A stretch of DNA of 15,831 nucleotides from Calditrichaceae bacterium (GTDB taxonomy: Bacteria; Calditrichota; Calditrichia; Calditrichales; JBFXGD01). Below are positions 1-15,831 of this stretch, in pieces. Position 1 is the stretch's first letter. Every line of letters starts with the position of its first letter. The translations under genes and the position numbers were made by a program. The DNA lies in the NCBI GenBank assembly GCA_050178385.1, contig JBFXGD010000070.1, positions 1-15,831 of the forward strand, written 5' to 3'. The notes beneath the pieces are model-generated. The model worked only from the letters and a program-made list of their open reading frames with translations. It searched no databases and was not told where the DNA came from.

Positions 1-486
1 AAGGAGATGGTTGAAGAAATTATTTCGGAAGGGCACAAGGTATTGATTTTCAGTCAGTTCGTACAGATGCTTCAGATTATTAAACGATTCATTGATGCCG
101 AAAATATACCATATTCCTATCTCGACGGATCCACAAAAGACCGCGAAGCGCCGGTAAAGCAGTTTCAGGAAGATGACAATATCCGGACATTCCTGATCAG
201 TCTTAAGGCGGGAGGAACCGGTTTAAATCTGACAGCCGCGGATTATGTTATCCATTATGATCCCTGGTGGAATCCGGCGGTTGAAATGCAGGCGACAGAC
301 CGCGCTTACCGGATTGGGCAGACCAGAAAAGTTTTTGCCTATAAACTCATTTCTAAAGACAGCGTGGAAGAAAAAATTGTTAAACTGCAGAATCAGAAAC
401 GTGAACTGGTTGAATCTTTGATATCCACCGAAGAGTCGTTCTTTAAATCACTTTCGAAAACAGATATCATCGAATTGTTTGAATAG
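1..486 (+). CDS. SNF2/DEAD-box family helicase, C-terminal helicase domain (5'-truncated by window edge)
   Basis: Frame is open from base 1. SNF2 C-terminal motifs KVLIFSQF, YLDGST, FLISLKAGGTGLNLTAADYVIHYDPWWNPAVEMQATDRAYRIGQ. Confidence 0.95.
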   Translation, partial: KEMVEEIISEGHKVLIFSQFVQMLQIIKRFIDAENIPYSYLDGSTKDREAPVKQFQEDDNIRTFLISLKAGGTGLNLTAADYVIHYDPWWNPAVEMQATDRAYRIGQTRKVFAYKLISKDSVEEKIVKLQNQKRELVESLISTEESFFKSLSKTDIIELFE

Positions 487-515
487 ATTACAGGAAATGA
501 TGGTCGAAGAATACG

Positions 516-544
516 AAAAGCAGTCTGACAGGCTGCTTTTTTTT
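516..544. terminator. Probable bidirectional intrinsic terminator between convergent genes
   Basis: AAAAGCAGTC-TGACA-GGCTGCTTTT hairpin followed by a T run, between the helicase (+) and HD-GYP (-) stops. Confidence 0.75.
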
Positions 545-556
545 AGGATATATAAA

Positions 557-1861
557 TCAGTGACGATATTTTCTTGAGTAATAGCGATTAAAAATATGTT
601 CAATTTCCGCGTTTTCCGCCGATTTCTGTGAAGGATTGGTATTCATGATATTTATGAGATCTTTTAGTGTGTAGTCTTTTAATTTATCGAGATCCCCGCT
701 ATCAAGATTTCTCTGATGCCCGAATTCAAGAACCTGAACTAATTTATGAAGACGGATGTTCTTGAAGTGATAAACGACAAATGGTTCAAAAGATGTACCG
801 GTTTCCTGATCGAGCAGCAAAATCACTTTGTCAAAATCCAAACGGTCATTATAGTGGCGTCTTGATGTCAAAGCATCAAATACATCGCATATGGATAAGA
901 TTTTTCCGCCGAGCGGGATTTCCTGACCGGTGAGTCCTGCCGGGTAGCCGGAGCCGTCTATTTTTTCATGATGGGTAGCGGCAATTTGGGGAATTTCCGA
1001 AAATTTCTTTTGAAACTGGATTTTACTAAGGATACTTTTGGTGATATTCGCGTGCCGTTTGATGATCTCGTATTCATCTTCGGTCAGCTGTTTATTTTTA
1101 AAAAGAACCATCTCCGGGACGCCTATTTTCCCGATATCGTGGAGCAGGGAGGCGTATCGGATGGTATTGATTTCATCCGGAGTCAACTCCATCAGTTTTG
1201 CGATTTCCACCGCATATAGGGTTACGCGTCTTGAATGGCCGGAAGTAATGTAATCACGCGCGTCCAGGGTTGTTGAGAGGGTTTCTATAAAGCTTTCAAA
1301 TGATTTTTTCTGCTCCTCATGCAGCCGGACATTTTCAACGGCATGGACGGTCATTTGAGAAATCGATTCCAGCAGCCGCGCCTGGATTTGGCTAAAGGGG
1401 CCAAAATTTTGGTTTAAGGCCAGAATAACCCCGATAATTTCATCGCTGTTGTTTTTAAGCGCTGTGGCAAGAATGTTTTTTACCGGGTAGCCTTCTTCAA
1501 TATCATATTTCGGACTAAAGCGCTCATCCTTAAATGCATCCGGAATATTAAGAGTCACACCTTCTTCCGCCACATAACCGGTGATTCCGGCCTTCATCGG
1601 GATACGAAGTTCGCGTCTGTCGCCCCCGGCGGATTTAGATCTGAGTTCCTGCTTTTCTTTATCTATGAGGTATAAATACGCCCGGTCGGCCTTTAAAATC
1701 TCACAAACAACTTCTGATGTCACGCGATAAAGCGCATCCTGATTTATAACGGCGATAAGAGTTTCTGATATTTTGAGGAGGGATTGAAGGTAATTATTCT
1801 CTTCCTGAAGTTTGAGAATTTCATTAGGGAGTTCAGTACCGGGAGATCCTGTGTTTCTCAT
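557..1861 (-). CDS. GAF + HD-GYP domain protein (putative cyclic-dinucleotide phosphodiesterase)
   Basis: GAF domain (GITGYVAEEGVTLNIPDAFKDERF), then GHSRRV, LLHDIGKIG, HHEKIDGSGYP, CDVFDALTSRR. Start placed at ATG 1861 to avoid overlap with the upstream small ORF; the ORF track gives 1894. Confidence 0.9.
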   Translation of the reverse strand: MRNTGSPGTELPNEILKLQEENNYLQSLLKISETLIAVINQDALYRVTSEVVCEILKADRAYLYLIDKEKQELRSKSAGGDRRELRIPMKAGITGYVAEEGVTLNIPDAFKDERFSPKYDIEEGYPVKNILATALKNNSDEIIGVILALNQNFGPFSQIQARLLESISQMTVHAVENVRLHEEQKKSFESFIETLSTTLDARDYITSGHSRRVTLYAVEIAKLMELTPDEINTIRYASLLHDIGKIGVPEMVLFKNKQLTEDEYEIIKRHANITKSILSKIQFQKKFSEIPQIAATHHEKIDGSGYPAGLTGQEIPLGGKILSICDVFDALTSRRHYNDRLDFDKVILLLDQETGTSFEPFVVYHFKNIRLHKLVQVLEFGHQRNLDSGDLDKLKDYTLKDLINIMNTNPSQKSAENAEIEHIFNRYYSRKYRH

Positions 1862-1865
1862 TTCA

Positions 1866-2048
1866 TCATTCAATTTCTTCATAATCCGCATCATCTATTT
1901 TATTTCGATAACGTTTTTGAAAATCGTCTTTTGTTTTAACATCCCGGCTCTTTTTTGTTCCGGGGCCAGAACTAAATCCTGCCAGAAGACGCTTGATATA
2001 TCGGTATGAAAGATAAGCGATTATAAATAATATAATAAATCGCAGCAT
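1866..2048 (-). CDS. Small single-pass membrane protein (60 aa)
   Basis: Hydrophobic N-terminus, basic linker, acidic C-terminal IDDADYEEIE. Fills the operon gap exactly and has a GAGG RBS-like sequence upstream. Confidence 0.75.
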   Translation of the reverse strand: MLRFIILFIIAYLSYRYIKRLLAGFSSGPGTKKSRDVKTKDDFQKRYRNKIDDADYEEIE

Positions 2049-2057
2049 AGTCAGCCT

Positions 2058-2702
2058 CTATTTCTTTTTTGAAACAAAATATCGTGTCCCCGTTGGATGA
2101 TGCCGGATTTCTCTGAGTATATCCTCATAATCCCGATTCTCATTCAGAAAGTCGAGTTCATCCGTATTGATAATCAACAGAGGCGTTTTATTGTATCTTA
2201 GAAAGAACGAATTGTATAACTCGTTTAACTCGGCAATATAATCCTGGGCCATATTTTTTTCGTATGAACGCCCACGTTTTTGAATATTATCCATCAGGTG
2301 ATTTGTCGATGCCTGAAGGTAAATAACCAGATCGGGTACGGGAATTTCACGTTCCATTAAACGGGCGATACCGTCATATAGTTTCATTTCCTTGTCAGAG
2401 AGATTGAGCGTGGCGAATATGCGGTCTTTTTCGAACATATAATCGCTGACAATCTGTTTCCTGAACAAATCAAGCTGTCTCAGGTTTTCCTGCTGCCGGA
2501 AGCGGCTGAGCAGAAAGAAGATCTGAGTCTGAAAGGAAAAACGGACCGGATCGTTATAAAATTCTTCCAGGAAGGGATTCTGTTCAAATTCTTCCAGGAC
2601 AAGTTCTGCCTGCAGGGTTTCACAAAGCATATTCGCCAGAGTGGTTTTCCCGGCCCCGATAACACCTTCGATTGCAATATAACGGAGTTTTTCAAAAGAC
2701 AT
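2058..2702 (-). CDS. Deoxynucleoside kinase (dCK/dGK family)
   Basis: P-loop IEGVIGAGKTT; NPFLEEFY, QIFFLLSR, PDLVIYL, RGRSYE motifs. Confidence 0.93.
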   Translation of the reverse strand: MSFEKLRYIAIEGVIGAGKTTLANMLCETLQAELVLEEFEQNPFLEEFYNDPVRFSFQTQIFFLLSRFRQQENLRQLDLFRKQIVSDYMFEKDRIFATLNLSDKEMKLYDGIARLMEREIPVPDLVIYLQASTNHLMDNIQKRGRSYEKNMAQDYIAELNELYNSFFLRYNKTPLLIINTDELDFLNENRDYEDILREIRHHPTGTRYFVSKKK

Positions 2703-2705
2703 TTT

Positions 2706-3188
2706 TTACCACTGATCTTTGTATGCCCTTATTTCACTTCTATCCGGGCAGTTCTCTATTAGTTGCTTAATTGTTAGTTGACTGCGGTTTTTATAATCCG
2801 GTAAAATTTCACGAAGCGGCAGAAGGACGAATTTTCTCAGTTCCATCTGTTGGTGCGGAATCTCCAGTATTGGAGTACAGATCCGCCCGCCATCCCAATC
2901 GATAATATCGATATCAATAACCCTGGAACCCCATCTTTGAGTACGCACACGCCCTGAAGCTGTTTCGATACTCTTCAGTTTTCTTAAAAGACGGAACGGC
3001 CCAAGGCCGGTTTCAAATAAACAGATTATGTTTAGAAAATCTGCCTGATTCTTAATGCCGACCGGTTCGGTCTTGTATATTCCCGATCTTTTTTCGATCC
3101 TGCCAAATTGATGAAGTTTGTTTACCGCCTTGTCCAAAGACTGTTCTCTTGATCCGGTATTGGCACCCAGGGATAATATATATTTCAT
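2706..3188 (-). CDS. folK: 2-amino-4-hydroxy-6-hydroxymethyldihydropteridine diphosphokinase (HPPK)
   Basis: LSLGAN, YKTEP, FLN, IE..GR, RWGSRVIDIDII, IPH, RKFVLLPL motifs; adjacent to folB. Confidence 0.96.
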   Translation of the reverse strand: MKYILSLGANTGSREQSLDKAVNKLHQFGRIEKRSGIYKTEPVGIKNQADFLNIICLFETGLGPFRLLRKLKSIETASGRVRTQRWGSRVIDIDIIDWDGGRICTPILEIPHQQMELRKFVLLPLREILPDYKNRSQLTIKQLIENCPDRSEIRAYKDQW

Positions 3189-3196
3189 CTATAATC

Positions 3197-3553
3197 TTAA
3201 TTTTTACGAAAAATTTCGATTTCCACATAATCGAGAAGCCCATTCATCGGGACATGCGGTTTCCTGACCCGAATCAAAACAGTGTGGATACCCGGTATAG
3301 GGAGAATTCTTCCGGCAATTTTTTCGGCCACAGTTTCGATAAGCTTAAATTTATAATTTTCAAAGGTCTCTTTGGCGATCTGATAAATCGCCCGGTAATC
3401 GATTGTTTTTTTTAGATCATCATCGCTGGATGCCGGGTTCAGATCACATTCGACTTCGATATCGACTTCAAATTTTTGACCAAGTTCGCGCTCCGCCTCG
3501 TAGTATCCGTGATGAGCGTAAAAGGTCATATTTTTTAAGCGGATAATATCCAA
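3197..3553 (-). CDS. folB: Dihydroneopterin aldolase
   Basis: FYAHHG..EAERELGQKFEVD, DDLKKTIDY, LIETVAE, VRKP motifs; TTG start. Confidence 0.96.
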   Translation of the reverse strand: MDIIRLKNMTFYAHHGYYEAERELGQKFEVDIEVECDLNPASSDDDLKKTIDYRAIYQIAKETFENYKFKLIETVAEKIAGRILPIPGIHTVLIRVRKPHVPMNGLLDYVEIEIFRKN

Positions 3554-3656
3554 AATAATCCCTGCTGTTCCTTTTTACCCCATTGTGATTAAATCAAATT
3601 ATTTACTTTCTAAATCCTGGCATTGATCAGGTCTATTATCAGAAAGTTTAATTTCA

Positions 3657-3685
3657 AATATAGTCAGATTGCCAATTTGAGTCAA
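3657..3685 (-). promoter_or_regulatory. Putative sigma70-type promoter of the folB operon
   Basis: Minus strand TTGACT (3685-3680), 17 bp, TATATT (3662-3657). Confidence 0.6.
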
Positions 3686-3711
3686 TAAAAAAGGGGGAAC
3701 ATGTATCAGAC

Positions 3712-3749
3712 AAAAAAAAACGGGATATACAGTGAATATATCCCGTTTT
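3712..3749 (-). terminator. Intrinsic terminator of groEL
   Basis: AAAACGGGATATA / TATATCCCGTTTT inverted repeat, 7-nt loop, 9-T run on the minus strand, just after the groEL stop. Confidence 0.88.
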
Positions 3750-3768
3750 AAATTTTAAAAGCAATTTT

Positions 3769-5430
<1,662 letters not shown>

Positions 5431-5520
5431 TTATTTATATTTTAATTGCCTCTTTAGATTAAAAATGTAACCCGGAGTTACAATTTTTTCTCAATACAAG
5501 TCATTTAATAGTTTAATGTG

Positions 5521-5547
5521 ATAGCACTCTCGCGTAAAGAGTGCTAA
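5521..5547 (-). promoter_or_regulatory. CIRCE element (HrcA operator)
   Basis: Minus strand TTAGCACTC-N9-GAGTGCTAT, one mismatch to the consensus TTAGCACTC-N9-GAGTGCTAA, upstream of groEL. Confidence 0.95.
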
Positions 5548-5574
5548 TATAAAAACAATATGATTTTTTTTCAA
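5546..5574 (-). promoter_or_regulatory. Putative sigma70-type promoter of groEL abutting CIRCE
   Basis: Minus strand TTGAAA (5574-5569), 17 bp, TATATT (5551-5546). CIRCE covers the predicted start site. Confidence 0.7.
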
Positions 5575-5592
5575 GCGAAAGATTGAAATTAA

Positions 5593-5621
5593 TTGCTCCT
5601 TTGTTTCTAAATGTCTATATT
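5593..5621 (+). promoter_or_regulatory. Putative promoter of the nucleotidyltransferase gene, divergent from groEL
   Basis: TTGCTC (5593-5598), 17 bp, TATATT (5616-5621). Confidence 0.5.
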
Positions 5622-5697
5622 TTTATTCTATATAAAAAATTGTTTTTCTAAAAAAGTGAATAACCTGATTCTTTCGTTTAAAAAGAGGACTGATTTG

Positions 5698-6762
5698 ATG
5701 AAGGCATTAATCACCAGCGGCGGCAGGGGAAGTCGGCTGCGCCCTTTGACCCATACTCAAAACAAACATCTGATTCCGATTGCCAATAAACCCATTCTGC
5801 ATTATGCCATCGAATATGCCGCGGAAGCAGGTATCAAAGAAATCGGTATCGTTTACAGCGCGGACTCAACGGCCGTTCCCGATGCGATCGGAGACGGTTC
5901 GAACTGGGGGGTAAATATTACTTATATCGCGCAGGAAGCACCGCTTGGGCTGGCGCATGTGGTTAAAATATCTCAGGATTTTATCGGCGATGATCCGTTT
6001 GTGTTTTATCTTGGTGATAATATGGTCGTGGGTGGTCTGAAACGGTTTATAGACGCTTTTCAGAAGAACGCGAGCAGCTGTCACCTGACTCTGGCAAAAG
6101 TTCAGGATCCGGAACGTTTTGGCGTGCCTGAGATTGCCGGGGACCGGATTGTAAGAATCGAAGAGAAACCAAAAGTCCCAAAAAGCAATTTCGCCGTATC
6201 CGGCATTTATATCTATGACAAGCATATCTTTGAAGCTGTAAATAACATTCAACCGAGCGCCCGGGGCGAACTTGAGATATCGGATGCCCATCAGTACCTT
6301 CTGGATAAGGGGTATAAAGTGACCTACTCGGAGATAACCGGGTGGTGGAAGGATACCGGTAAACCCTATGATTTGCTGGAAGCGAACCGGCTGATTCTTG
6401 ATAATATTATCGGGTATATCAAGGGAACTGTTGATGATAAAAGTTTTGTAACGGGAAAAGTGATTATTGAAGATGGCGCGAAAATTATCAATTCGACAGT
6501 GCGTGGACCCGCAATCATCGGTAAAAACACCATCATTGAAAACAGTTATGTGGGACCGTTTACATCTATAAATGATGATTGCCGCATCCATAACAGTGAA
6601 GTTGAATTCAGTATCCTGCTGAAAGAATGCAAGATTACCAATGTCGATATCCGGATTGAGCACAGTCTGCTTGGTCATGATGTGGAGATTGTAAAAGCCG
6701 GCAGCCGGCCAAGAACGCACCGGTTTTTAATCGGCGATCAAAGCCGTGTGGAGTTAATATAA
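5698..6762 (+). CDS. Glucose-1-phosphate thymidylyltransferase, long form (RmlA-long/StrD-like, C-terminal left-handed beta-helix)
   Basis: GGRGSRLRPLT..NKHLIPIANKP, PLGLAH, YLGDN, RFGV, EEKP, PSARGELEISDA, WWKDTG, hexapeptide tail. Start at ATG 5698 with a GAGG RBS. Confidence 0.9.
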   Translation: MKALITSGGRGSRLRPLTHTQNKHLIPIANKPILHYAIEYAAEAGIKEIGIVYSADSTAVPDAIGDGSNWGVNITYIAQEAPLGLAHVVKISQDFIGDDPFVFYLGDNMVVGGLKRFIDAFQKNASSCHLTLAKVQDPERFGVPEIAGDRIVRIEEKPKVPKSNFAVSGIYIYDKHIFEAVNNIQPSARGELEISDAHQYLLDKGYKVTYSEITGWWKDTGKPYDLLEANRLILDNIIGYIKGTVDDKSFVTGKVIIEDGAKIINSTVRGPAIIGKNTIIENSYVGPFTSINDDCRIHNSEVEFSILLKECKITNVDIRIEHSLLGHDVEIVKAGSRPRTHRFLIGDQSRVELI

Positions 6763-6924
6763 TCCGGTCGCGGTAATCAAACAATCCCGTTAAATTATCG
6801 ATAATGAATAACGTGTCAAATTCATCAGCCCTGAATATTTGATCCGTGTCGCCAACAGAGTTCATTCAAAAATATCTGATTCAATTTACCATCCAATAAA
6901 AGACTATCTTTATAAGGAGGCGTC

Positions 6925-7707
6925 ATGTCTTATAAAAACATCATAGTTGAAATAAATCCCCCTGTCGCAACCATTTTGATCAACAGACCCGAGAAATTAA
7001 ATGCCCTAAACGTGGAAACCGTCACAGAATTAGCGGGGGCATTCCGTAAATTAACTGCTAATGACTCTGTCGGAGGTGTTTTACTGACCGGCGCGGGTGA
7101 AAAAGCCTTTGTCGCGGGAGCGGATATCTCCGAAATTCAGAATTTAAATGAAAGTAAGGGCCGGGAATTCGCAAAGGCGGGACAGGCGGCTTTTAATTTG
7201 ATCGAACAGCTCGGCAAGCCGGTTATCGCGCTTGTAAACGGTTACGCGCTCGGCGGTGGATGTGAGCTTGCCATGGCGTGCCATTTGCGGATCGCAAGTG
7301 AAGAAGCAAAGTTTGGTCAGCCGGAAGTGAATCTTGGAATTATTCCCGGATACGGCGGCACTCAGCGGATGCCGAGAATCATTGGCAGCGGACTTGCGAT
7401 ACAGTACCTATTATCGGGAGAGATGATCAACGCTCAACGCGCCTATGAAATTGGTCTTGTCAATAAGGTTGTTCCATTTGCGGAGCTGAAAGAAGCGGGA
7501 CAGAAAATGCTGGGACAGATTTTATCAAAAGGACCGCTGGCTGTCCGTTATGTTCTCAGCGCTGTTAATGAAGGCCTGAACACAAATCTTGAAAACGCGT
7601 TAAATATTGAAGCGTCATACTTCGGGAAGGCCTGCGAGACAGATGATATGAAAGAAGGGACTTCGGCTTTTCTCGAAAAACGTAAGGCGAATTTTAGAGG
7701 AAAATAA
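6925..7707 (+). CDS. Enoyl-CoA hydratase (crotonase family)
   Basis: NRPEKLNALN, AFVAGADI, NGYALGGGCELAMAC, FGQPEVNLGIIPGYGGTQR; strong AAGGAGG RBS. Confidence 0.95.
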   Translation: MSYKNIIVEINPPVATILINRPEKLNALNVETVTELAGAFRKLTANDSVGGVLLTGAGEKAFVAGADISEIQNLNESKGREFAKAGQAAFNLIEQLGKPVIALVNGYALGGGCELAMACHLRIASEEAKFGQPEVNLGIIPGYGGTQRMPRIIGSGLAIQYLLSGEMINAQRAYEIGLVNKVVPFAELKEAGQKMLGQILSKGPLAVRYVLSAVNEGLNTNLENALNIEASYFGKACETDDMKEGTSAFLEKRKANFRGK

Positions 7708-7708
7708 G

Positions 7709-8782
7709 TTGGATCCGTCAAAGCCTCTGGTTTTAATTTTTAATCATACACAGTCCGAATTCGTGAAGCTGATTGTGGAACAATTCGAAAAATATCAGAT
7801 AAGTGTCCGGGTTGATGACAGCATTGACCAATTCCGCGATTCTTTGCTGAAAGAAAGTTATGACATCATCATATTCTTTGCTGATCCTTCACGCAAAGCC
7901 ATAAAATCTCTGATTGAACAAATTTCCGGAGATTTACTTATGGCTCTGTCGTGCTGTTTTTATCCCAAAGTTGCCGAGAATAACGATAATTTTGATTTTA
8001 ATTTATCGGAGAATGATTTACGGAACAAGGAGACGGTGGCAAGATTGTTTCCCGGTTTCATCAAAATCGCGGGCAGAAGGAAATCTCAGACGGAACTTTC
8101 CGCGATGATTATTCATGATCTCCGTTCTCCTATGCAGAGTATCCTTGGGTATCTGGAGCTTCTGAAGGACGAGGTGTTCGGCTCCATAAATGAAGGGCAG
8201 AATCAGATTCTCCACAACGCGATTACTCTCGGAGATAATACTACAGATTTATTGGATGAACTCAGCCGTGTTTATCAGTATGAATCAAGACATCTTCAAA
8301 TCTCGAAAGATCCGGTAAAACTTAAAAATTTCATAGAAGAAACCGTTCGTTCTTTATGGATCCAGGCGGATAAAAAGGATATAAAATTTAAACTTCTGAT
8401 TGATTCAAATCTCCCTGAAATTCGTTTGGATCAGCGGGCGATACAACGCGTATTTATCAACATCGTAACCAACGCGATCAGACACAGCCCGCCGAAAGGG
8501 GTGGTCCGCATTGAGGTTCAGACGGTTAAACTTTCTTCAAACGATCCTGTGATACAATTCCTGGTGAAAGACTCCGGACCCGGTATTTCAGGTGAAGAAA
8601 TGAATTATCTGTTTAAAAAATATTACCGCAGTAAAAAGGAAAAGAACCGCAACGGATTCGGACTCGGTCTGTACGTCTCGAAACTGATCATTGACGCGCA
8701 TGAGGGAAATATCGGTTTCTATAATAACAGGGAAGGCGGGAGCACATTCTACTTCACTTTACCGATTCAATCCACCAAATAA
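7709..8782 (+). CDS. Cytoplasmic sensor histidine kinase (degenerate receiver-like N-terminus, HisKA, HATPase_c)
   Basis: H box HDLRSPM, N box NIVTNAIRHS, G1 DSGPGI, F box, G2 GFGLGL, GSTFYFTLP. No transmembrane segment; TTG start 1 nt after the crotonase stop. Confidence 0.9.
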   Translation: MDPSKPLVLIFNHTQSEFVKLIVEQFEKYQISVRVDDSIDQFRDSLLKESYDIIIFFADPSRKAIKSLIEQISGDLLMALSCCFYPKVAENNDNFDFNLSENDLRNKETVARLFPGFIKIAGRRKSQTELSAMIIHDLRSPMQSILGYLELLKDEVFGSINEGQNQILHNAITLGDNTTDLLDELSRVYQYESRHLQISKDPVKLKNFIEETVRSLWIQADKKDIKFKLLIDSNLPEIRLDQRAIQRVFINIVTNAIRHSPPKGVVRIEVQTVKLSSNDPVIQFLVKDSGPGISGEEMNYLFKKYYRSKKEKNRNGFGLGLYVSKLIIDAHEGNIGFYNNREGGSTFYFTLPIQSTK

Positions 8783-8825
8783 TTTTTCGGAAATATATTT
8801 TATCCATTAAAAAGCTGATTGAAAT

Positions 8826-8861
8826 AAAAATAGCCGTCTTTACAAGTAAAAACGGCTATTT
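8826..8861. terminator. Terminator-like hairpin, U tail on the minus strand
   Basis: AAATAGCCGT...ACGGCTATTT inverted repeat preceded by an A run. Confidence 0.6.
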
Positions 8862-9196
8862 GGAGGAGTGTGGATGTTCTTATGCAACTTTCAATCATTA
8901 ATCAATAATAAGCCAATCGTTCTTATTGTTGATTTATAAACTTTAATTCATCGCCAGAAATATTGTTCCATTTTTTGTAAAACTTTTTAATAGAATCGAA
9001 TATTTGAAACAGAATCCTAAAATTCGCCATAATCCCCGCTGTTTTAATAAAAATAATACGCAATACTTGCTTTGTATATGAAATTGTGAATATTTTAATT
9101 AATCACAGCTCCGGCCGCGAACCAGATACGCGCCCGGGAATTAAACCAAAAATTGGCCGGATTTTTACGGAAACCGCTACTAAACATGAGGTACTT

Positions 9197-10570
9197 ATGG
9201 GAAGATTGAATATCGATTTTTCCGAGCTTACAAACGGACATAATATTGAATTTATTGATCTCAAGGTCACGGATTTGCAGGGACGGCTGCATCACCTGAC
9301 ATTGCCCTATAGTGAAGATACTCTAAAAGGGTTGATGAAAGACGGGGTCGGGTTTGACGGATCAAGTTATGGATTCCAGAAGGTTGAAAACAGCGATATG
9401 ATCATGAAACCTGATCTGAAAACCGCCATGATTGACCCGTTCAGAGAGTCTCCCACACTGAGTTTTTTCACGCGGGTATTTAACACCGATGATAAAAACA
9501 CGCCTTTTCAGTTTGATTTAAGAAACATGGCTGAAGCGACTGAAGGTTTGCTCAAAAAATACGGTGTGGCCGATCATTCCATGTGGGGACCGGAATTTGA
9601 ATTCTATATATTTAAAGACGCGAAATTTAAATCGACCGCGCAGCACAGTTTTTACAGTATTGATTCCGAAGAAGGATTTCTGTCCAACGGGTATCACATA
9701 GCCAATCCTCTGGATGAATATGATGATTTCCGTGATGAAGCGTCCAAATTACTCATGGATGCCGGAATTTCAGTCAAATACCATCATCATGAGGTGGGGA
9801 ATCTTGGCCAGCAGGAAATTGAAGTCAATTTTGACCGATTACCGGCAACCGCCGATAAGATTGTCATTGCCAAATATATTCTCCATAATCTGGCTCGCAA
9901 GAAGGGCCTGCGTCTGACCTTTATGCCGAAACCCGTTTTTAAACAGGCCGGCTCGGGGATGCATGTTCATCATTATCTCATGAAAAACGGGAAAAACGGA
10001 TTCTATGAAAAAGGGTCTTACGCCAATTTGAATAAGACCGCCCTCTATTATATAGGCGGAATTCTGAAACATTCTCAGGCGCTTTGCGCGTTTACCAACC
10101 CTTCCACCAATTCGTACAAACGGCTGGTTCCCGGGGTGGAAGCGCCCACGGCCATCAATTTCGGGCAGGCGAACAGGGCTTCGTGTGTACGCATCCCGAG
10201 ATATATCAAGGATGCTCAGAAGACCCGCTTTGAATATCGCCCGCCGGACGCGACAGCCAATCCATACCTGGCGCTTGTGACCATTATGCTGGCCGGTCTT
10301 GACGGGGTGATCAATAAAATCGATCCGGTAAAGGAAGGATTCGGTCCTTATGAAGCGGAAGGTTTTGATCCGAATATCGAAATGAATTATTTACCATTCA
10401 CGCTGAATTCGGCTCTTGAGGCGCTAAAGGCGGATTATAAATTTCTACTCCGTGATAATATTTTTAGTGAACGACTGATTGGTCACTGGTTATCTGTGAA
10501 GGAACTCGAATTCAATCAGGTCTCGAACTGGCCAAGCCCGGTGGAGTATTCACTCTATTTTGATTTATAA
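9197..10570 (+). CDS. glnA: Glutamine synthetase type I
   Basis: FDGSS, SDM, GPEFEFY, HHHEV, QQEI, TFMPKP, GSGMHVH, NSYKRLVPG, NRASCVRIP, RFEYRPPD..NPYL. Start placed at ATG 9197 (GAGGT RBS); the ORF track gives 9086. Confidence 0.96.
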   Translation: MGRLNIDFSELTNGHNIEFIDLKVTDLQGRLHHLTLPYSEDTLKGLMKDGVGFDGSSYGFQKVENSDMIMKPDLKTAMIDPFRESPTLSFFTRVFNTDDKNTPFQFDLRNMAEATEGLLKKYGVADHSMWGPEFEFYIFKDAKFKSTAQHSFYSIDSEEGFLSNGYHIANPLDEYDDFRDEASKLLMDAGISVKYHHHEVGNLGQQEIEVNFDRLPATADKIVIAKYILHNLARKKGLRLTFMPKPVFKQAGSGMHVHHYLMKNGKNGFYEKGSYANLNKTALYYIGGILKHSQALCAFTNPSTNSYKRLVPGVEAPTAINFGQANRASCVRIPRYIKDAQKTRFEYRPPDATANPYLALVTIMLAGLDGVINKIDPVKEGFGPYEAEGFDPNIEMNYLPFTLNSALEALKADYKFLLRDNIFSERLIGHWLSVKELEFNQVSNWPSPVEYSLYFDL

Positions 10571-10607
10571 TCACACCATAGGTTAAATGATATCATTTTT
10601 TAGCGAC

Positions 10608-10632
10608 GGCGGGAATATCCCGCCTTTTTTTT
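10608..10632 (+). terminator. Intrinsic terminator of glnA
   Basis: GGCGGGA-ATA-TCCCGCC followed by 8 T. Confidence 0.88.
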
Positions 10633-10683
10633 TGTTTATTTCAGTAGATTTTATTGATCTGTTTTTTGAAAGCGGGAGAAAAA

Positions 10684-11187
10684 ATGCGTTTTGCAATATT
10701 ATGGACTTTTTCAATACTGACTTTAATGAGTTGTTCTGAAAAATCGGCTTATCTGGTAAAAGGGGATGCCGTTCCCGATATAGAGTTCCGCGCCGTGGAT
10801 GGCGAGTCGTTGACATTTAATGAGTTCAAGGGGAAGACGATATTAATTCATTTTTGGGCGGACTGGTGTTCGGAATGCCGCGCGGAGTTTCCAAAACTCG
10901 AACAAGCGTATCAGAAATACAGGGCGGATGGGTTTGAAATTTTAGCTGTTAATGTGGCGCAATCCCAATCCCATGTTCAGTCATTTAAAGACGAGTATGG
11001 TTTGAATTTCCCGATGCTGATGGATGAAAATTCAGCCATCGCGAAAAAATTCGGAATCCGCGGCCTGCCCACTAATTATTTCATCGGTAAGGAGGGCAGG
11101 GTGGAAAGGGTGATTATCGGCTGGGTTGATGAGGAGCAGATCTCCCTGGTGTTAAATAATATCAATTCAAAAGGAGTTTATGAATGA
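10684..11187 (+). CDS. TlpA/ResA-like thiol:disulfide oxidoreductase lipoprotein
   Basis: Lipobox LMSC, HFWADWCSECRAEFP (CxxC), cis-Pro GLPTNYFI. Start at ATG 10684 with a GGGAG RBS. Confidence 0.9.
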   Translation: MRFAILWTFSILTLMSCSEKSAYLVKGDAVPDIEFRAVDGESLTFNEFKGKTILIHFWADWCSECRAEFPKLEQAYQKYRADGFEILAVNVAQSQSHVQSFKDEYGLNFPMLMDENSAIAKKFGIRGLPTNYFIGKEGRVERVIIGWVDEEQISLVLNNINSKGVYE

Positions 11188-11678
11188 GAAATATTTTGAT
11201 CTTTGTGGCGGGTATAATTTTAATGGTCACGGCGTGTTCAAAAAAGGAAGAGCCCAAAATACAAAGTCTTTCAAAAGAGGCGGTTGCAGAAACACATCAT
11301 TGCGCCAATTGCGGAATGATAACCAATGAATATCCCGTTTGGGAAAAAACAATGGTTTCCGCTGACCACGGAACAGAATACTTTGACAGCGCGAAATGTA
11401 TGTTCATGGTAATTCTGGATTCCGCAAAAGCTCCGGGGCAGATCTCTGAAATTATCACAAAGGACTTTATCACTTCCAATGAACTAGACGCCAGAGATGC
11501 GTATTATGTTATGGGATCCGATGTGATGGGTCCGATGGGTAAAGATTTGGTCTCATTTGGATCACGGAACGCGGCGCAAACGTTTGTTTCGGAGCATGGC
11601 GGGGACGAAGTCCTGGAGTTTAGTGACATCAATATGGCGGTCATACAAAAATTAAACGGTAAAATGATGATGAAATAA
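11184..11678 (+). CDS. NosL-family metal-binding lipoprotein
   Basis: Lipobox VTAC, CANCGM, FDSAKCM, AYYVMGSDVMGPMG, F...HGG. ATGA overlap with the upstream gene. Confidence 0.85.
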   Translation: MRNILIFVAGIILMVTACSKKEEPKIQSLSKEAVAETHHCANCGMITNEYPVWEKTMVSADHGTEYFDSAKCMFMVILDSAKAPGQISEIITKDFITSNELDARDAYYVMGSDVMGPMGKDLVSFGSRNAAQTFVSEHGGDEVLEFSDINMAVIQKLNGKMMMK

Positions 11679-11700
11679 TGCTGATGAGGCATAAACTCAT

Positions 11701-11729
11701 TTGACTTTTAAATTTAAAATGATTATTTT
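11701..11729 (+). promoter_or_regulatory. Putative tRNA promoter
   Basis: TTGACT (11701-11706), 17 bp, TATTTT (11724-11729). Confidence 0.6.
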
Positions 11730-11751
11730 TTCGAACTCAAAATTTGAGGCT

Positions 11752-11836
11752 GCCGGAGTGGTGGAATTGGTAGACGCGCTGGACTCAAAATCCAGTGAGG
11801 GTTGACCTCGTGTCGGTTCGAGCCCGACCTCCGGTA
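11752..11836 (+). tRNA. tRNA-Leu (anticodon CAA)
   Basis: Acceptor GCCGGAG/CTCCGGT, D arm GTGGAATTGGTAGACGC, anticodon arm CTGGA-CTCAAAA-TCCAG, long variable arm, T arm GTCGG-TTCGAGC-CCGAC, discriminator A; followed by CCG rather than CCA. Confidence 0.97.
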
Positions 11837-11847
11837 CCGGAAAGATT

Positions 11848-11890
11848 AAGGGTTTACAGAACTGAGGAAATTTCTGTAAACCCTTTTTTT
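11848..11890 (+). terminator. Intrinsic terminator after tRNA-Leu
   Basis: AAGGGTTTACAGAA / TTCTGTAAACCCTT 14-bp stem followed by a T run. Confidence 0.88.
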
Positions 11891-12310
11891 ATGGCATCCG
11901 CGCCGGACAAATCTATTTGTAACGGATTCAACAATACATCGGCGTGATTTTTTCCTTCCAGCGTAGTTCTTCAGCTAACAATGATCTTGATATTCTCCTC
12001 ATTTAAAGTATTATTCTGTTTTCGTTGATTACAGAATACTATTTATTGTTCAATCCGTTAGGTTTTTATTTTTTTTATTGCTATGGATCAGGACAGACAT
12101 TATGTTTTTAACATCATAGGAATTGGCCTCTTAATTAAGCATTCGTAACAAAAACAGGATATTGACCAGATAATCGAGTATGTAAGTCACGTGGCGGAGC
12201 TTTATTCATGTAAATATAAAAATGCCTATTAGTTTATAGTAGTAGTAGAGTATGACTTGATATAGAACGTGTGAATAAACACTAAATTATTCTGATATCA
12301 AACGATTCTG

Positions 12311-12373
12311 TTTTTCTAATATTAGAAAAAAATGTCTATATTTAGAAAACCTTTTCCAATATTAGAAAAAAAT
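12311..12373. repeat. Three palindromic units at 20-bp period (putative operators or recombinase accessory sites)
   Basis: TTTTTCTAATATTAGAAAAA (perfect palindrome, 12311-12330), AATGTCTATATTTAGAAAAC (12331-12350), CTTTTCCAATATTAGAAAAA (12351-12370). Confidence 0.85.
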
Positions 12374-12389
12374 CAGCCGCCTAATGGGC

Positions 12390-12409
12390 GGCTAATAACT
12401 ATGATAGGA
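12390..12409 (+). mobile_element. attI-like site at the head of the cassette array
   Basis: GGCTAAT-AACTAT-G/ATAGGA resembles the inverted L box, spacer and R core of attI sites (cf. attI1 CCCTAAA-ACAAA-G/TT). Identity with the downstream repeat copy starts exactly at this G. Confidence 0.5.
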
Positions 12410-12552
12410 CCGACCTAAACGGTCGGTCCTATCGTAGCGGCGGCTTTTCAATCCGCCTTCCCGGCCGCCCTTGGCGGCCTATCAGGCGAATCGAACCGAC
12501 AAGTCCTTTTGAGCGCAAGCGCTCAAGGCCTTGCGGCTCATCCGCCGCTACG
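12403..12552 (+). repeat. Gene-less, GC-rich multi-hairpin cassette, copy 1 (~149 bp), ending in an atypical attC (12477-12558)
   Basis: 123/126 identity with 15706-15831. Hairpins at 12403-12433, 12463-12479 and 12509-12526; 12434-12443 pairs with 12542-12551; R''-like GCCTATC, L'' AATCGAAC, L' GCTCATC, R' GTTAGAC. Confidence 0.85.
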
Positions 12553-12586
12553 TTAGACCGCTAAAAAAGTATTAGTGGAGGACTGA

Positions 12587-13117
12587 ATGCAAAAACCATC
12601 AGAAAAAGTATCAAAACACAAATCATTTTTCTTTACAATGCCTGGTGCGATAATATTGGCGGCTGTAATTACCGCTGTATTTGGGATAATTGGTGTAATG
12701 ATAGTACATGATAATCAGCCAATTATCGCTGTTCAACAAGAAGGTTCTCAACAAAGTCAGAATTCTATCTTATCACCAATTAATAATGAGATTGTGATAA
12801 ATCCAATACGTGTTGAAGGTACATTGTCATCATATTCCGAAGAATCTTTTTTCTGGTTAGCTGTTCAAGTTGGTAATCTACTTTGGCCAAAAGTGGAAAT
12901 AAGGTCTACCGAATTCGAATGGACAAAATATGTTAATGAAAGAGAACAACCAGGGAAAAGATTCGGCATAGTCCTAATCAGGATAGATACAGAAGGTCAA
13001 CGGATTGTTAAAAATTGGTTCCAGGAAGGTGATGCAAGTGGTCATTATCCTGGTTTTGAGATTGTCCCAAACAGTGAGACCTTAGATATTGTTAAAGTAA
13101 TGTTTGATGAGCAATAA
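12587..13117 (+). CDS. Hypothetical membrane-anchored protein (cassette 1)
   Basis: GGAGG RBS, one N-terminal hydrophobic helix, Q/S linker, beta-strand-rich C-terminal domain; fills the cassette. Confidence 0.8.
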   Translation: MQKPSEKVSKHKSFFFTMPGAIILAAVITAVFGIIGVMIVHDNQPIIAVQQEGSQQSQNSILSPINNEIVINPIRVEGTLSSYSEESFFWLAVQVGNLLWPKVEIRSTEFEWTKYVNEREQPGKRFGIVLIRIDTEGQRIVKNWFQEGDASGHYPGFEIVPNSETLDIVKVMFDEQ

Positions 13118-13140
13118 TGTAAATTATTCATTACAAAGCG

Positions 13141-13231
13141 GTCTAACCATGTGCTGCAGTGGACGCCTTCAGCTGTGGCATGAGCAATGTCATTGGTAAA
13201 ATCCGGCGCCACTGAGCACTGGCCGATAGCT
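13141..13231 (+). mobile_element. attC site of cassette 1
   Basis: R'' GTCTAAC, 5-nt spacer, L'' GCTGCAGT with one extrahelical base, L' ACTGAGC, 7-nt spacer, R' GATAGCT. Confidence 0.88.
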
Positions 13232-13246
13232 TTTGGGTAAAGTTTT

Positions 13247-14134
13247 ATGAATTTATATAAATACGTTGTAGCTGATAGATTTGATATTTTACAGAACAAA
13301 CAAATACGTTTTACTCAACCTACATCTTTTAATGATCCTTTCGAACTTCAACCCTTTTTGTCTTCTGTTGCAAGTCCTACGTATTTTTCAGATTTAATGA
13401 AATCTGATGGTTTTAAGAAAGATTATAATGAAAAATTATTAGAACTAATTGAAAAAAATCTTCCACAAAATATGCATACTTACAAAGACCAATTACTTAG
13501 TCTTGCAAGAGAAATAAACCTCGATAATTTTGTAACTCCCCTTTTAGATCAAATAAATCCGATTTTTAGATCAACAATGTTCGAAGGAATAAATAACTCA
13601 ATTGGAATATTAAGTTTATGTGAAAATCCAGACAGCTTATTAATGTGGGCTCACTATTCTAACTCACATACAGGCTTTGTTATTGAGTTTGATATGAACC
13701 ACAACTTTTTCTCCGAAAGACTATCTTCAGAAAATTCATTACATGGGCTAAAAAAAATAATTTATTGCCATAGTCGTCCTGCCCTCATATTGATGGACGA
13801 TGTCACAGAAGCTATCAAAACTGATGAAGGCAAATTTATCAATGATATCTTTTTTACTAAAAGTTCTGAATGGAAATATGAAAAAGAATGGAGAATGTTA
13901 AATCCATTAAAAGATGCTACTACAACATTTAACAATAACGGGGAAGATATTTTTTTATTTGATATTGAACCGAAATGTATAAAACGGATTATATTTGGTT
14001 GCAGAACTGAAGAGCCTACGGAAATCAAAATTAAAAAAATAATAAATGAATCGACTGAATTTTCGCATATAAAAACTTGTAAGTCGTTAATTGACCAAAA
14101 AGAATTTAAGTTAAATATAGTGGAAAAAAGCTAA
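13247..14134 (+). CDS. DUF2971-family protein (cassette 2)
   Basis: LYKY, FNDPFE, LLMWAHYSNSHTGFVIEFD, FTKSSEWKYEKEWR, IIFG motifs; the stop codon lies inside the attC R'' box. Confidence 0.87.
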   Translation: MNLYKYVVADRFDILQNKQIRFTQPTSFNDPFELQPFLSSVASPTYFSDLMKSDGFKKDYNEKLLELIEKNLPQNMHTYKDQLLSLAREINLDNFVTPLLDQINPIFRSTMFEGINNSIGILSLCENPDSLLMWAHYSNSHTGFVIEFDMNHNFFSERLSSENSLHGLKKIIYCHSRPALILMDDVTEAIKTDEGKFINDIFFTKSSEWKYEKEWRMLNPLKDATTTFNNNGEDIFLFDIEPKCIKRIIFGCRTEEPTEIKIKKIINESTEFSHIKTCKSLIDQKEFKLNIVEKS

Positions 14135-14224
14135 CACAAGGTTCAAGGTGAATTTGTTCGTCGGAGCATGATTCAGGGTTCGAGTAATTTACAATCGCAA
14201 ATCACCTTAACCTCATGGTTATAT
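14129..14224 (+). mobile_element. attC site of cassette 2
   Basis: R'' AGCTAAC, 5 nt, L'' GTTCAAGG (extra C, i.e. extrahelical G on the bottom strand), L' CCTTAAC, 6 nt, R' GTTATAT; fully canonical. Confidence 0.92.
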
Positions 14225-14291
14225 GGGTATTTGATAAACGATGAAAGTGTGCAGAAGATTATTGATCTGCGATACTAAAAGGAAAAGAATA

Positions 14292-15551
14292 ATGAAAAAA
14301 GAAAAGATATTTTTTTTGTTACTATTTTTTTTGTTGAGTTGTTTTAATTCACAAGCTCAACAAAGTGAAAAATTAGAACCTTATATAAATACTTTGAAAG
14401 AAAAAGGCGATGAACCAATTCATTTTATCCTTGATAAATTGGATAATTACGGTCTTATTCTTTTTGACGACGCATTACATACGGCTGTTGAACCTTTTGA
14501 ATTTTACCAGAATTTGATCAAAAATGTGGGTTTCCAAAAAAAGGTCAAATATATCTTTCTCGAGGCTATTTCTGTTAATGAGCAGCCTGCCCTGGATGCT
14601 TACTTTAATTCAGAAATCGATGATTTAAAGCTTTCGTATCCTGCCTTTCAAAACGATTTTAGCGGAACCGGTTGGCCCTACAAAACCTATTTTGATTTAC
14701 TACAAACCATTTGGAAAACAAATTCAACGCTACCGGTTCAAGATCGATTTAAGGTGGTTGCAGTGAATGCGCCCACTTATTGGAAAGAAATAGATACACA
14801 GAAAGATTTGGATTTATTCCGACTTTCACTTGTGGGAAATGATTATACAATGTACAAGATCATTCTTTCATATTTGGATAATTTTAAATCTGAGGAAAAA
14901 GGTATATTTTTAACCAATACACGCCATGCCTACAAGGGAATTAAAAACCAGGAAAATAAATATTACTGGAATTGTGGAACATTTTTTTACTTACACAATC
15001 AGGGAAAAACCTATTCTGTGCGTTTCCATAACATTAATTTAAGTTTCGAAGAGAAAAAAGAAGTGGATCCTAAAACTCCCAAAACCACAGAAGGGCTTGA
15101 AGATGTAATTGTCAAGTGGGTGCGGATGGAAAAAGGATTATGGGATAGTGCATTTGAAGCATTTGGAAATATGCCTAGTGCGTTTGATTTAAAAGGTACA
15201 CCATTTGGCAATACCGGATATATTGGTAACCACATGTTTAATGTGGCATCGGGTCAAACAATGTATGATGCTTACGACGCGCTGATTTTTTTAGCACCTG
15301 TTGAGAAACTTCACCAGACAGCTATGGTTGATTTCATATACACGGATGAATATAAACATGAGTTGGAAAGGCGGTCAAATTTTCTTTACAATGGAGAACA
15401 AATAAATAAAATTTTAACCGATAAAGGTTTAAAATCTTTAAGAGAATTTATAGATACCTATTTTATTTACAAGCCTGAAATATTGCAGCCACTGGCAAAA
15501 GAGATTGGTCCTATTGATGCATGGAAAACCAAAAATAATCAAAATCATTAA
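14292..15551 (+). CDS. Exported hypothetical protein, possibly EreA/ChaN-like fold (cassette 3)
   Basis: Signal peptide MKKEKIFFLLLFFLLSCFNSQA; LILFDDALH, YIFLE, NTRHA and C-terminal YDALIFL resemble EreA/ChaN-superfamily motifs. Start at 14292 with an AAGGA RBS; the ORF track gives 14241. Confidence 0.7.
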   Translation: MKKEKIFFLLLFFLLSCFNSQAQQSEKLEPYINTLKEKGDEPIHFILDKLDNYGLILFDDALHTAVEPFEFYQNLIKNVGFQKKVKYIFLEAISVNEQPALDAYFNSEIDDLKLSYPAFQNDFSGTGWPYKTYFDLLQTIWKTNSTLPVQDRFKVVAVNAPTYWKEIDTQKDLDLFRLSLVGNDYTMYKIILSYLDNFKSEEKGIFLTNTRHAYKGIKNQENKYYWNCGTFFYLHNQGKTYSVRFHNINLSFEEKKEVDPKTPKTTEGLEDVIVKWVRMEKGLWDSAFEAFGNMPSAFDLKGTPFGNTGYIGNHMFNVASGQTMYDAYDALIFLAPVEKLHQTAMVDFIYTDEYKHELERRSNFLYNGEQINKILTDKGLKSLREFIDTYFIYKPEILQPLAKEIGPIDAWKTKNNQNH

Positions 15552-15580
15552 TGCAAAGAGCAGTCTATGGTATGATTAAC

Positions 15581-15712
15581 AAATAACAATTGGCTGCACT
15601 TGAAGGCGAGGGCTATAAGATTTTAGGGAATTTGTAGATTTACTCATGTTTTGTTTGCTTCTTGAAGTTTTGTGCTAATCCATCCCGCCGCAAGTGAGCC
15701 ATACCGATAGGA
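15581..15712 (+). mobile_element. attC site of cassette 3
   Basis: R'' AAATAAC, 5 nt, L'' GCTGCACT, L' AGTGAGC, 6 nt, R' GATAGGA. Confidence 0.88.
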
Positions 15713-15831
15713 CCGACCTAAACGGTCGGCCCTATCGTAGCGGCGGCTTTTCAATCCGCCTTCCCGGCCGCCCTTGGCGGCCTATCAGGCGAATCGAACC
15801 GACAAGCCCTTTTGAGCGCAAACGCTCAAGG
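15706..15831 (+). repeat. Gene-less multi-hairpin cassette, copy 2 (truncated by the window end)
   Basis: Differs from 12403-12528 only at 15730, 15807 and 15822; starts exactly at the R' G of the preceding attC. Confidence 0.9.

Follow-up and report, generated by a model that had tools for sequence, protein, structure and literature searches.

A gene-less mini-cassette with a GAT/ATC core in integron cassette arrays of Calditrichota

Introduction

Gene-less paralogous cassettes have been described in the integrons of Vibrio, where a selfish element and a function were raised as two options for them (Boucher et al., 2006; PMC1382264), and many or most of those tested act as promoters (Blanco et al., 2024; PMC11014356). 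Here we describe element E, a 149-nt sequence without an open reading frame (ORF), which occurs twice in a 15,831-nt stretch of DNA from a Calditrichaceae bacterium (assembly GCA_050178385.1, contig JBFXGD010000070.1, positions 1 to 15,831 of the forward strand). This stretch, hereafter the window, is the entire contig C70 of a 3.89 Mb genome (G000; 320 contigs, 41.8% G+C). Like the gene-less cassettes of Vibrio, E lacks an ORF, is bounded as a cassette, is present in several near-identical copies per array, is conserved between related species and is restricted to one lineage. Unlike them it is far smaller, amounting to little more than a folded recombination site and some 17 nt besides, and has the core GAT/ATC, whereas no altered cores are mentioned for the Vibrio cassettes in the available parts of the two papers. 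A sigma-70 consensus scan of 12403-12552 finds no promoter-like site, such promoters not being predictable in silico according to PMC11014356.

The GTT/AAC triplet is treated as an invariant signature of integron sites, and programs that find attC sites rely on it. All integrons characterized by then showed the same conserved triplet, according to Frumerie et al. (2010; PMC2811028), whose work on IntI1 reports that identity of the two partner sites is required at the first triplet base only, and that the second is "quite tolerant". In the same work, replacing T2 by A2 together with its complement, which gives a GAT/ATC attC, raises attC x attI1 recombination, GAT is a preferred secondary site of the enzyme, and a non-complementary GTT/ATC attC falls from 2.2e-3 to 6e-6, i.e. 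about 370-fold. Element E carries the identical substitution, T2 to A2 with its complement, but unlike these laboratory mutants (of attCaadA7 and of the Vibrio cholerae repeat, VCR, used with IntI1) it would be a natural family. A partial literature search by literal matching gave no natural GAT/ATC attC family, and nothing on integrons of Calditrichota beyond one table entry, in which a cluster of attC sites lacking an integron integrase (CALIN) is listed for Caldithrix abyssi (PMC10295459). A natural, conserved and multiplying GAT/ATC family would show that the laboratory finding, a free second position with A perhaps the better base, is used in nature, and bears on whether the constancy of the triplet reflects chemistry or the need to keep cassettes exchangeable.

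An earlier note on this DNA had pointed to five junction heptamers, GATAGGA (12403), GTTAGAC (12552), GATAGCT (13225), GTTATAT (14218) and GATAGGA (15706), and to CTATC boxes at 12429-12433 and 12479-12483, all of which we read at these places. It took the junctions to be of the integron type, and we agree: the heptamers lie at cassette junctions, and three bulged hairpins fold beside them and are recovered by an attC model of the lineage. Its caution that the three GATs amount to two independent cases was also right, two of them being copies of E. Its central proposal, a variant core specificity of the integrase, is not borne out by the results below. We consider it likely instead that the region is an integrase-less array, made up of an attI-like leader, three ORF cassettes and two E mini-cassettes, in which E was moved by the integron integrase IntI and the GAT at 13225 is a separate change.

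Element E is bounded and self-complementary like a cassette

In the window, 12403-12528 matches 15706-15831 at 98% identity. The repeat, of 158 nt, has only two copies in G000, both in this array, and the true limits of E are 12404-12552 (149 nt). Copy 1 occupies exactly these positions on the plus strand, its last base G12552 being the G of GTTAGAC; copy 2, on the same strand at 15707-15831, shares 98% identity with copy 1 and breaks off where the contig ends. The two bracket the three ORF cassettes of the array.

We collected 15 full copies of E from 12 loci, all of which begin G|AT and end G|TT. The right edges read GTTAG in 12, GTTAT in two and GTTGG in one, and the left edge follows the G of an attC or attI-like site in all 15. 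The DNA that precedes a copy is the 3' half of one of several unrelated attC sites or, at G052:C20, in metagenome locus L089 and in the window, an attI-like leader; in L090 and L093 E may be preceded by another such leader, and the ORFs found upstream of it in L093 have no Pfam match. Copies that are cut or internally deleted also start with GAT (window 15706, L097, L119 and L027:9205), while a degenerate copy in L029 starts GTAGG. With its 149 nt without an ORF, its two copies in the window, four to five in genome G010 and its occurrence in Calditrichota only among the genomes searched, E agrees with the description of a gene-less paralogous cassette, and it behaves as a gene-less integron mini-cassette, being bounded exactly like a cassette.

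As in any cassette, the start of E (ATAGGA...) is complementary to its internal inverse core (...TCCTATC): ATAGGACCGACC pairs with GGTCGGyCCTAT, with a GG/CC versus AG/CT difference between clades. Thus, in an excised circle the R box would read GAT/ATC, fully paired, and on the modelled fold it would sit within a continuous helix of 23 bp. Within the linear element a perfect 13-bp hairpin (P1) joins GATAGGACCGACC (12403-12415) to GGTCGGTCCTATC (12421-12433) and holds the GAT...ATC; a 10-bp stem (P2), formed by GTAGCGGCGG (12434-12443) and CCGCCGCTAC (12542-12551), abuts P1 and closes a three-way junction. The second CTATC box lies at 12479-12483. Thirteen of the 15 full copies have ATC as their R'' triplet and the other two have ATT, so that E lacks the AAC/GTT pair conserved in attC sites.

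To count covariation, we aligned 18 rows by fitting them to a covariance model of E (R3), which has 52 pairs. In this alignment, which leans towards the model, 89.5% of the cells pair and 15 of the 52 pairs change on both sides, a number reached by none of 500 shuffles in a control that overstates the support, the copies being related; sliding the partners by 1-3 columns left 0-4 pairs changing on both sides. We take the covariation as support for the stems and not as proof. In P1, five of the 12 pairs have changed in both partners. Within the GAT/ATC itself the G:C and A:T pairs are constant, the second being A:U in 17 of the 18 rows and never T:A (the odd row lacks P1). The pairs beside them do covary, one for example being GC in nine rows and AU in seven, which indicates that the hairpin of E is under selection. 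Cells that depart from Watson-Crick pairing, read on the top strand, are A.C in 27 cases and G.T in four, an excess that would fit folding of the bottom strand.

Distribution of E, its copies and its link to complete integrons

We searched for E with BLAST and model R3 in 86 genomes of the class and found it in seven of them (G000, G001, G010, G016, G018, G052 and G054), which belong to three families, and also in nine metagenome loci. A lookup of an 18-mer of E in species genomes returned 50 loci, only seven of which contain E, all from Calditrichota, the others being chance matches.

E is linked to true integrons. Against a cut-off of 265 bits, two of the genomes that carry it encode IntI with scores of 477 bits (G054:C229) and 446 bits (G018:C130). 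In a third, at G052:C20, about 275 bp separate a copy from a frameshifted intI, and the leader before this copy (...CCACTTAATTATATG|AT) has its match in the leader of the intact integron G054:C229 (...CCACTTAATTATATG|TTAGAT). Occupancy of the attI-like site also differs between close relatives. The window leader is 86% identical over 12271-12373 to the leader found at the same tRNA-Leu locus in G001, of the same genus, and in L089. The leaders of these two end in ...TCTAATCAATATG|, followed by GTT in G001 and by E in L089; they are 98.5% identical over 400 nt up to the G, with E next in L089 and an ORF cassette next in G001, so that the first position must have turned over between close relatives.

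The element multiplies within arrays to judge by its copy number. G010 has four consecutive units of ORF cassette, attC and E at the array end nearest the contig end; its full-length copies (n=3) are 97-99% alike and 85-90% identical to those of G000 and G001, with 60-74% between clades. In contigs of public sequencing run X1, which is probably the source sample of the window, words of E have a depth of 66-141, those of the flanks one of 9.5, and E is continued by at least two other sequences.

The regular succession in G010 could also suggest that E is not separately mobile, and that an ordinary attC and the E behind it form one composite, over-long recombination site. This would agree as well with fused forms, in which a left attC half runs into the inner part of E (L030:3997-4150 and L027:5917-6037), but these are read as deletions between short repeats. 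E further stands behind attI-like leaders that have no attC (window, L028, L089), the same attC family is found both with and without E, and 32 of 43 attC sites surveyed in the same arrays are not followed by it. We therefore regard a composite site as highly improbable. A comparison of filled and empty positions provided, besides these shared attC families, the one shared leader with different first cassettes, and did not provide the same cassette pair with and without E among the loci compared.

Several mini derivatives, of about 45-70 nt, consist of little beyond P1 and P2 (L119:1501-1565, L029:3227-3296 and L027:9190-9260); apart from the L029 copy, which starts GTAGG, they retain the G|AT and G|TT edges. 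In L093 (313-917) the cassette immediately 3' of an E copy has a Phd/ParE toxin-antitoxin pair, and an ordinary attC comes after it.

GAT belongs to E and not to the cassettes of the lineage

The triplets of ordinary attC sites were tabulated with a covariance model (R2) built from 17 attC sites of the window and its relatives, its structure taken from column complementarity; it replaced a first model (R1) that came out without base pairs, RNAalifold having found no consensus. An energy-based attC scan, noisy outside arrays (many matches at -9 to -12 kcal/mol), was used only for placing sites inside arrays. R2 gave 50 matches over 19 sources, from which we dropped four on the opposite strand, two internal partial matches and one cut by a contig end; of the resulting 43 sites on the array strand, 17 are the model seed. 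Their R' triplets are GTT (28), GAT (12), GTA (2) and GTG (1), and their R'' triplets AAC (41) and GAC (2), with ATC in none. E follows 11 of the 12 attC sites that end in GAT, the remaining one being window 13225, and the 32 junctions at which no E comes next comprise 28 with GTT and a single GAT, again 13225. Thus, GAT occurs nearly only at junctions with E, a pattern that exceeds chance, and ATC never in an ordinary inverse core, and it appears that GAT belongs to E and not to the cassettes of the lineage in general.

These counts bear directly on the idea, proposed in the earlier note, that the IntI of this lineage has shifted its specificity and uses GAT/ATC as a normal core beside GTT/AAC. 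Three GAT junctions within one array of 3.3 kb, together with the conservation of the GAT/ATC of E across three families, are what such a shift would give. A compensated core other than GTT is moreover found in a second array of the same genome. There, on contig C90 (locus L101, C90:4235-5826), another attI-like leader (4235-4303), with 85% identity over 67 nt to that of G001 and L089, precedes two cassettes. GTCAGGC closes the first attC (5156-5255), and the second cassette, an ORF cassette, begins G|TCAGGCAG and has the matching inverse core CTGCCTGAC, i.e. a compensated GTC/GAC core. Hence compensated non-GTT cores are not confined to E and recur in the lineage; by analogy, this is in agreement with the relaxed requirements already known for IntI1. 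Against a shift stand the 28 of 32 GTT junctions without E, the lack of compensation at the sole GAT among them and the absence of ATC from all 43 inverse cores.

The integrase itself points the same way. The IntI of G054 (L030:22-981) aligns to VchIntIA (2A3V) at 329.7 bits. In VchIntIA the tryptophans W157 and W219 presumably hold an extrahelical base; W219 is kept in the G054 protein and W157 is replaced by H. Counted from the alignment, K160, G161, T22, Y26, H271, H293 and Y302 are all kept, residues named as cleavage-site contacts or as catalytic in PMC2811028, and nothing in them indicates an altered recognition of the triplet. Since the wild-type IntI1 already recombines GAT/ATC sites (PMC2811028), a variant specificity is not needed to account for E. 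Taken together, we consider a shifted integrase very unlikely.

The GAT at 13225 calls for an explanation of its own. Cassette 2, which starts there with ATAGCTTTT, has as its own inverse core AAAAGCTAAC (AGCTAAC, 14129-14135), and the inverse core upstream of the junction is GTCTAAC (13141-13147). GATAGCT at 13225 and the inverse core of cassette 2 are complementary in nine of ten bases, the A alone being not. Thus, the compensation of GAT by ATC noted earlier holds for E, where 12403-12415 pairs with 12421-12433 in a conserved manner, and does not hold for 13225, neither AGCTAAC nor GTCTAAC supplying the ATC. Run X1 has an independent contig that also shows the A at 13226, without a listed difference there. 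Most simply, 13225 is a separate event, a single uncompensated change from T to A in an array without an integrase. The relatives of cassette 2 gave no answer as to its ancestral 5' end, the best match in the 86 genomes having 36% identity. We also considered 13225 as the scar of a lost E copy, formed by a crossover in the TAG shared by GATAGG and GTTAGC; canonical excision would restore GTT, so that a scar would require an off-register event, and none of the other 31 junctions without E has GAT, which leaves this as a minor possibility only.

The GAT at 13225 looks like decay or a point change, which for this site is the outcome that the earlier note had named as fatal to its proposal. All GAT cores could likewise be mutations in an array that has lost its integrase. 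G000 and G001 indeed have no IntI, 13225 is uncompensated, and odd cores are found in relatives too, GTG once and GTA twice. The GAT of E, in contrast, is paired with ATC, is invariant across copies, occurs also in genomes with an intact IntI and is flanked by pairs that covary. Simple decay therefore holds only for 13225, and as an account of all the GAT cores we give it scarcely any probability.

A proposal for the movement of E

The mobility of E by means of the integron machinery, which we favour, can be pictured as follows. The integrase would exchange a single strand on the folded bottom strand of E, which would enter at attI and at the R' sites of attC and multiply within arrays. Once it is placed among GTT/AAC cassettes, both flanking sites would be mismatched at the middle base, AAC facing GAT upstream and ATC facing GTT downstream. 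The likeness to attC sites (59-base elements) is apparent in the imperfect palindrome at the 3' end of the cassette, the crossover G|TT, the complementarity of R'' and R' in the circle and the wobble bias that points to the bottom strand. E differs from these sites in the middle base of the triplet, which is changed on both sides, in its terminal structure, which is a three-way junction, and in its R box.

The last difference leads to the points that weigh against this reading, to which the caveat on the shuffle control given above also belongs. The R box of E runs into a perfect 10-bp stem and not into an unpaired spacer: both in minimum-energy and in constrained folds P1 and P2 are abutting perfect helices without an unpaired central spacer, no clear extrahelical bases lie beside the R box, and bulges are present only in the inner stem P4. 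The model of canonical attC sites gives no match to E at an E-value of 1 or below over the loci and, with filters off, only 7.1 bits, for the inner segment 12474-12561 with the second CTATC as inverse core. This inner part, as modelled, thus faintly resembles an ordinary attC, and either of the two CTATC boxes may serve as R''. Further, G000 and G001 lack an integrase, their best scores of 87.7 and 87.6 bits lying below the cut-off of 265; a divergent copy in G016:C122 starts GAATAGG; and the copy at L092:2483-2645 adjoins a three-gene lipoprotein-like operon instead of cassettes, with its interior opposite to those genes, which may reflect insertion at a secondary site or a loss of strand selectivity. 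Four public runs contain no excision joint, no empty-site read and no join that skips E or a cassette, in contigs only, with X2, X3 and X6 holding only pieces. Finally, an inserted E would have on either flank the mismatch of the GTT/ATC mutant studied with IntI1, and by analogy with the roughly 370-fold drop of that mutant inserted copies may be poor substrates (PMC2811028).

Several of these points would be expected if E were not a substrate of IntI at all but an independent structured mobile element, or an RNA gene, reaching the R' box of attC and attI sites by some other homing mechanism, with the GAT...ATC hairpin as its own terminus. The missing spacer and extrahelical bases, the bare detection by the attC model and the L092 copy, outside a cassette context and in opposite orientation, would all agree with this, as would the strongly conserved and covarying three-way junction, which looks like a functional RNA or single-stranded DNA. 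However, E is without an ORF, and in the loci read it is accompanied by neither a recombinase nor a reverse transcriptase. In Rfam 15 its only match is the small RNA family CcsR1, with 21.1 bits where the gathering score is 65.3, i.e. at chance level, and no other family matches at an E-value of 1 or below. Both edges lie exactly at the integron crossover G in 15 of 15 full copies, without a target duplication, and the start is complementary to the inverse core, as in real cassettes. On balance an independent element seems unlikely. The bottom-strand stem GAGCCG...CGGTTC of E, which we take to recall domain V of group II introns, had suggested a part of such an intron; the excessive length of the stem and the lack of an Rfam match led us to drop the idea.

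With E as a mini-cassette moved by IntI, we assign it no function beyond self-propagation. Tentatively, and as a rather doubtful possibility, it could be a selfish ratchet cassette that exploits a freely changeable core base, combining easy entry with rare exit and locking its neighbours. By the IntI1 data, the paired GAT/ATC of the circle would recombine at least as well as the wild type, whereas the mismatched flanks after insertion would make exit rare, so that E would accumulate and hold neighbouring cassettes in place. Such a ratchet would explain the runs of cassette and E in G010 and the frequent first position of E beside attI. Mismatched R boxes on both flanks of an inserted copy could tune the stability of an array. 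The presence of E also makes junctions resemble over-long or degenerate attC sites, and annotation pipelines will miss such units.

Layout of the window array and its attI-like leader

The array of the window begins downstream of a chromosomal landmark, a tRNA-Leu (CAA) gene on the plus strand (11752-11838), which marks the same locus in G001 and L089. About 560 bp of non-coding DNA follow it, and then come the three ORFs of the array, all on the same strand. The attI-like leader (12271-12403, plus strand) ends in ...CTAATAACTATG| at the crossover G (12403), where copy 1 of E follows. Cassette 1 (12553-13225, plus strand) contains an ORF at 12587-13117 (176 aa, without a Pfam match) and attC1 (13141-13231), and its 5' end, TTAGACC, agrees with its own inverse core GGTCTAAC. 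Cassette 2 (13226-14218, plus strand) combines an ORF for a DUF2971 protein (13247-14134) with attC2 (14129-14224). Cassette 3 (14219-15706, plus strand) has an ORF at 14241-15551 (436 aa, with a weak ChaN/Tiki-like match) and attC3 (15581-15712), and its 5' end, TTATAT, agrees with its inverse core AAATAAC. Copy 2 of E completes the array.

By folding, an imperfect hairpin with bulged bases follows each ORF, at 13141-13231, 14129-14224 and 15581-15712. The three score 60.2, 52.5 and 22.1 bits with the attC model of the lineage, the first two being part of its seed. There are thus three attC sites on one strand, each closing a cassette of one ORF. No IntI exceeds the TIGR02249 cut-off of 265 bits in G000, which is 94% complete in 320 contigs, so that an unassembled intI is possible; the best scores are 87.7 and 77.6 bits, both on contig C164, with none on C70. 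The window array is accordingly a sedentary, integrase-less cassette array of the CALIN type that retains an attI-like leader. Like a CALIN it has at least three attC sites, and neither its contig nor the genome bin contains an IntI. Unlike one it keeps the attI-like leader, conserved at one tRNA-Leu locus in three related genomes with different first cassettes. An Rfam 15 scan of the whole window gave the tRNA and the one chance-level small RNA match on E, and nothing else.

Palindromic repeats TTCTAATATTAGAA are found inside the leader, in two copies in the window (12312-12333 and 12352-12373) and four in G001 (L026, reverse strand, about 9190-9340); they may be operators or accessory integrase-binding sites. 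Just upstream of the crossover G, a hairpin on the minus strand (12372-12396), followed by a T run, resembles a terminator. In G001 about 360 nt of coding-looking sequence lie between the tRNA-Leu and the leader (L026, reverse strand, about 8840-9200), with no counterpart in the window; a 74-aa ORF from this stretch has no Pfam match. Elsewhere in G000, a lone attC-like site (GGCCAAC ... GTTGTGT; 34.6 bits with R2) is present at C243:2229-2294, on a 4.4-kb contig of small paired ORFs.

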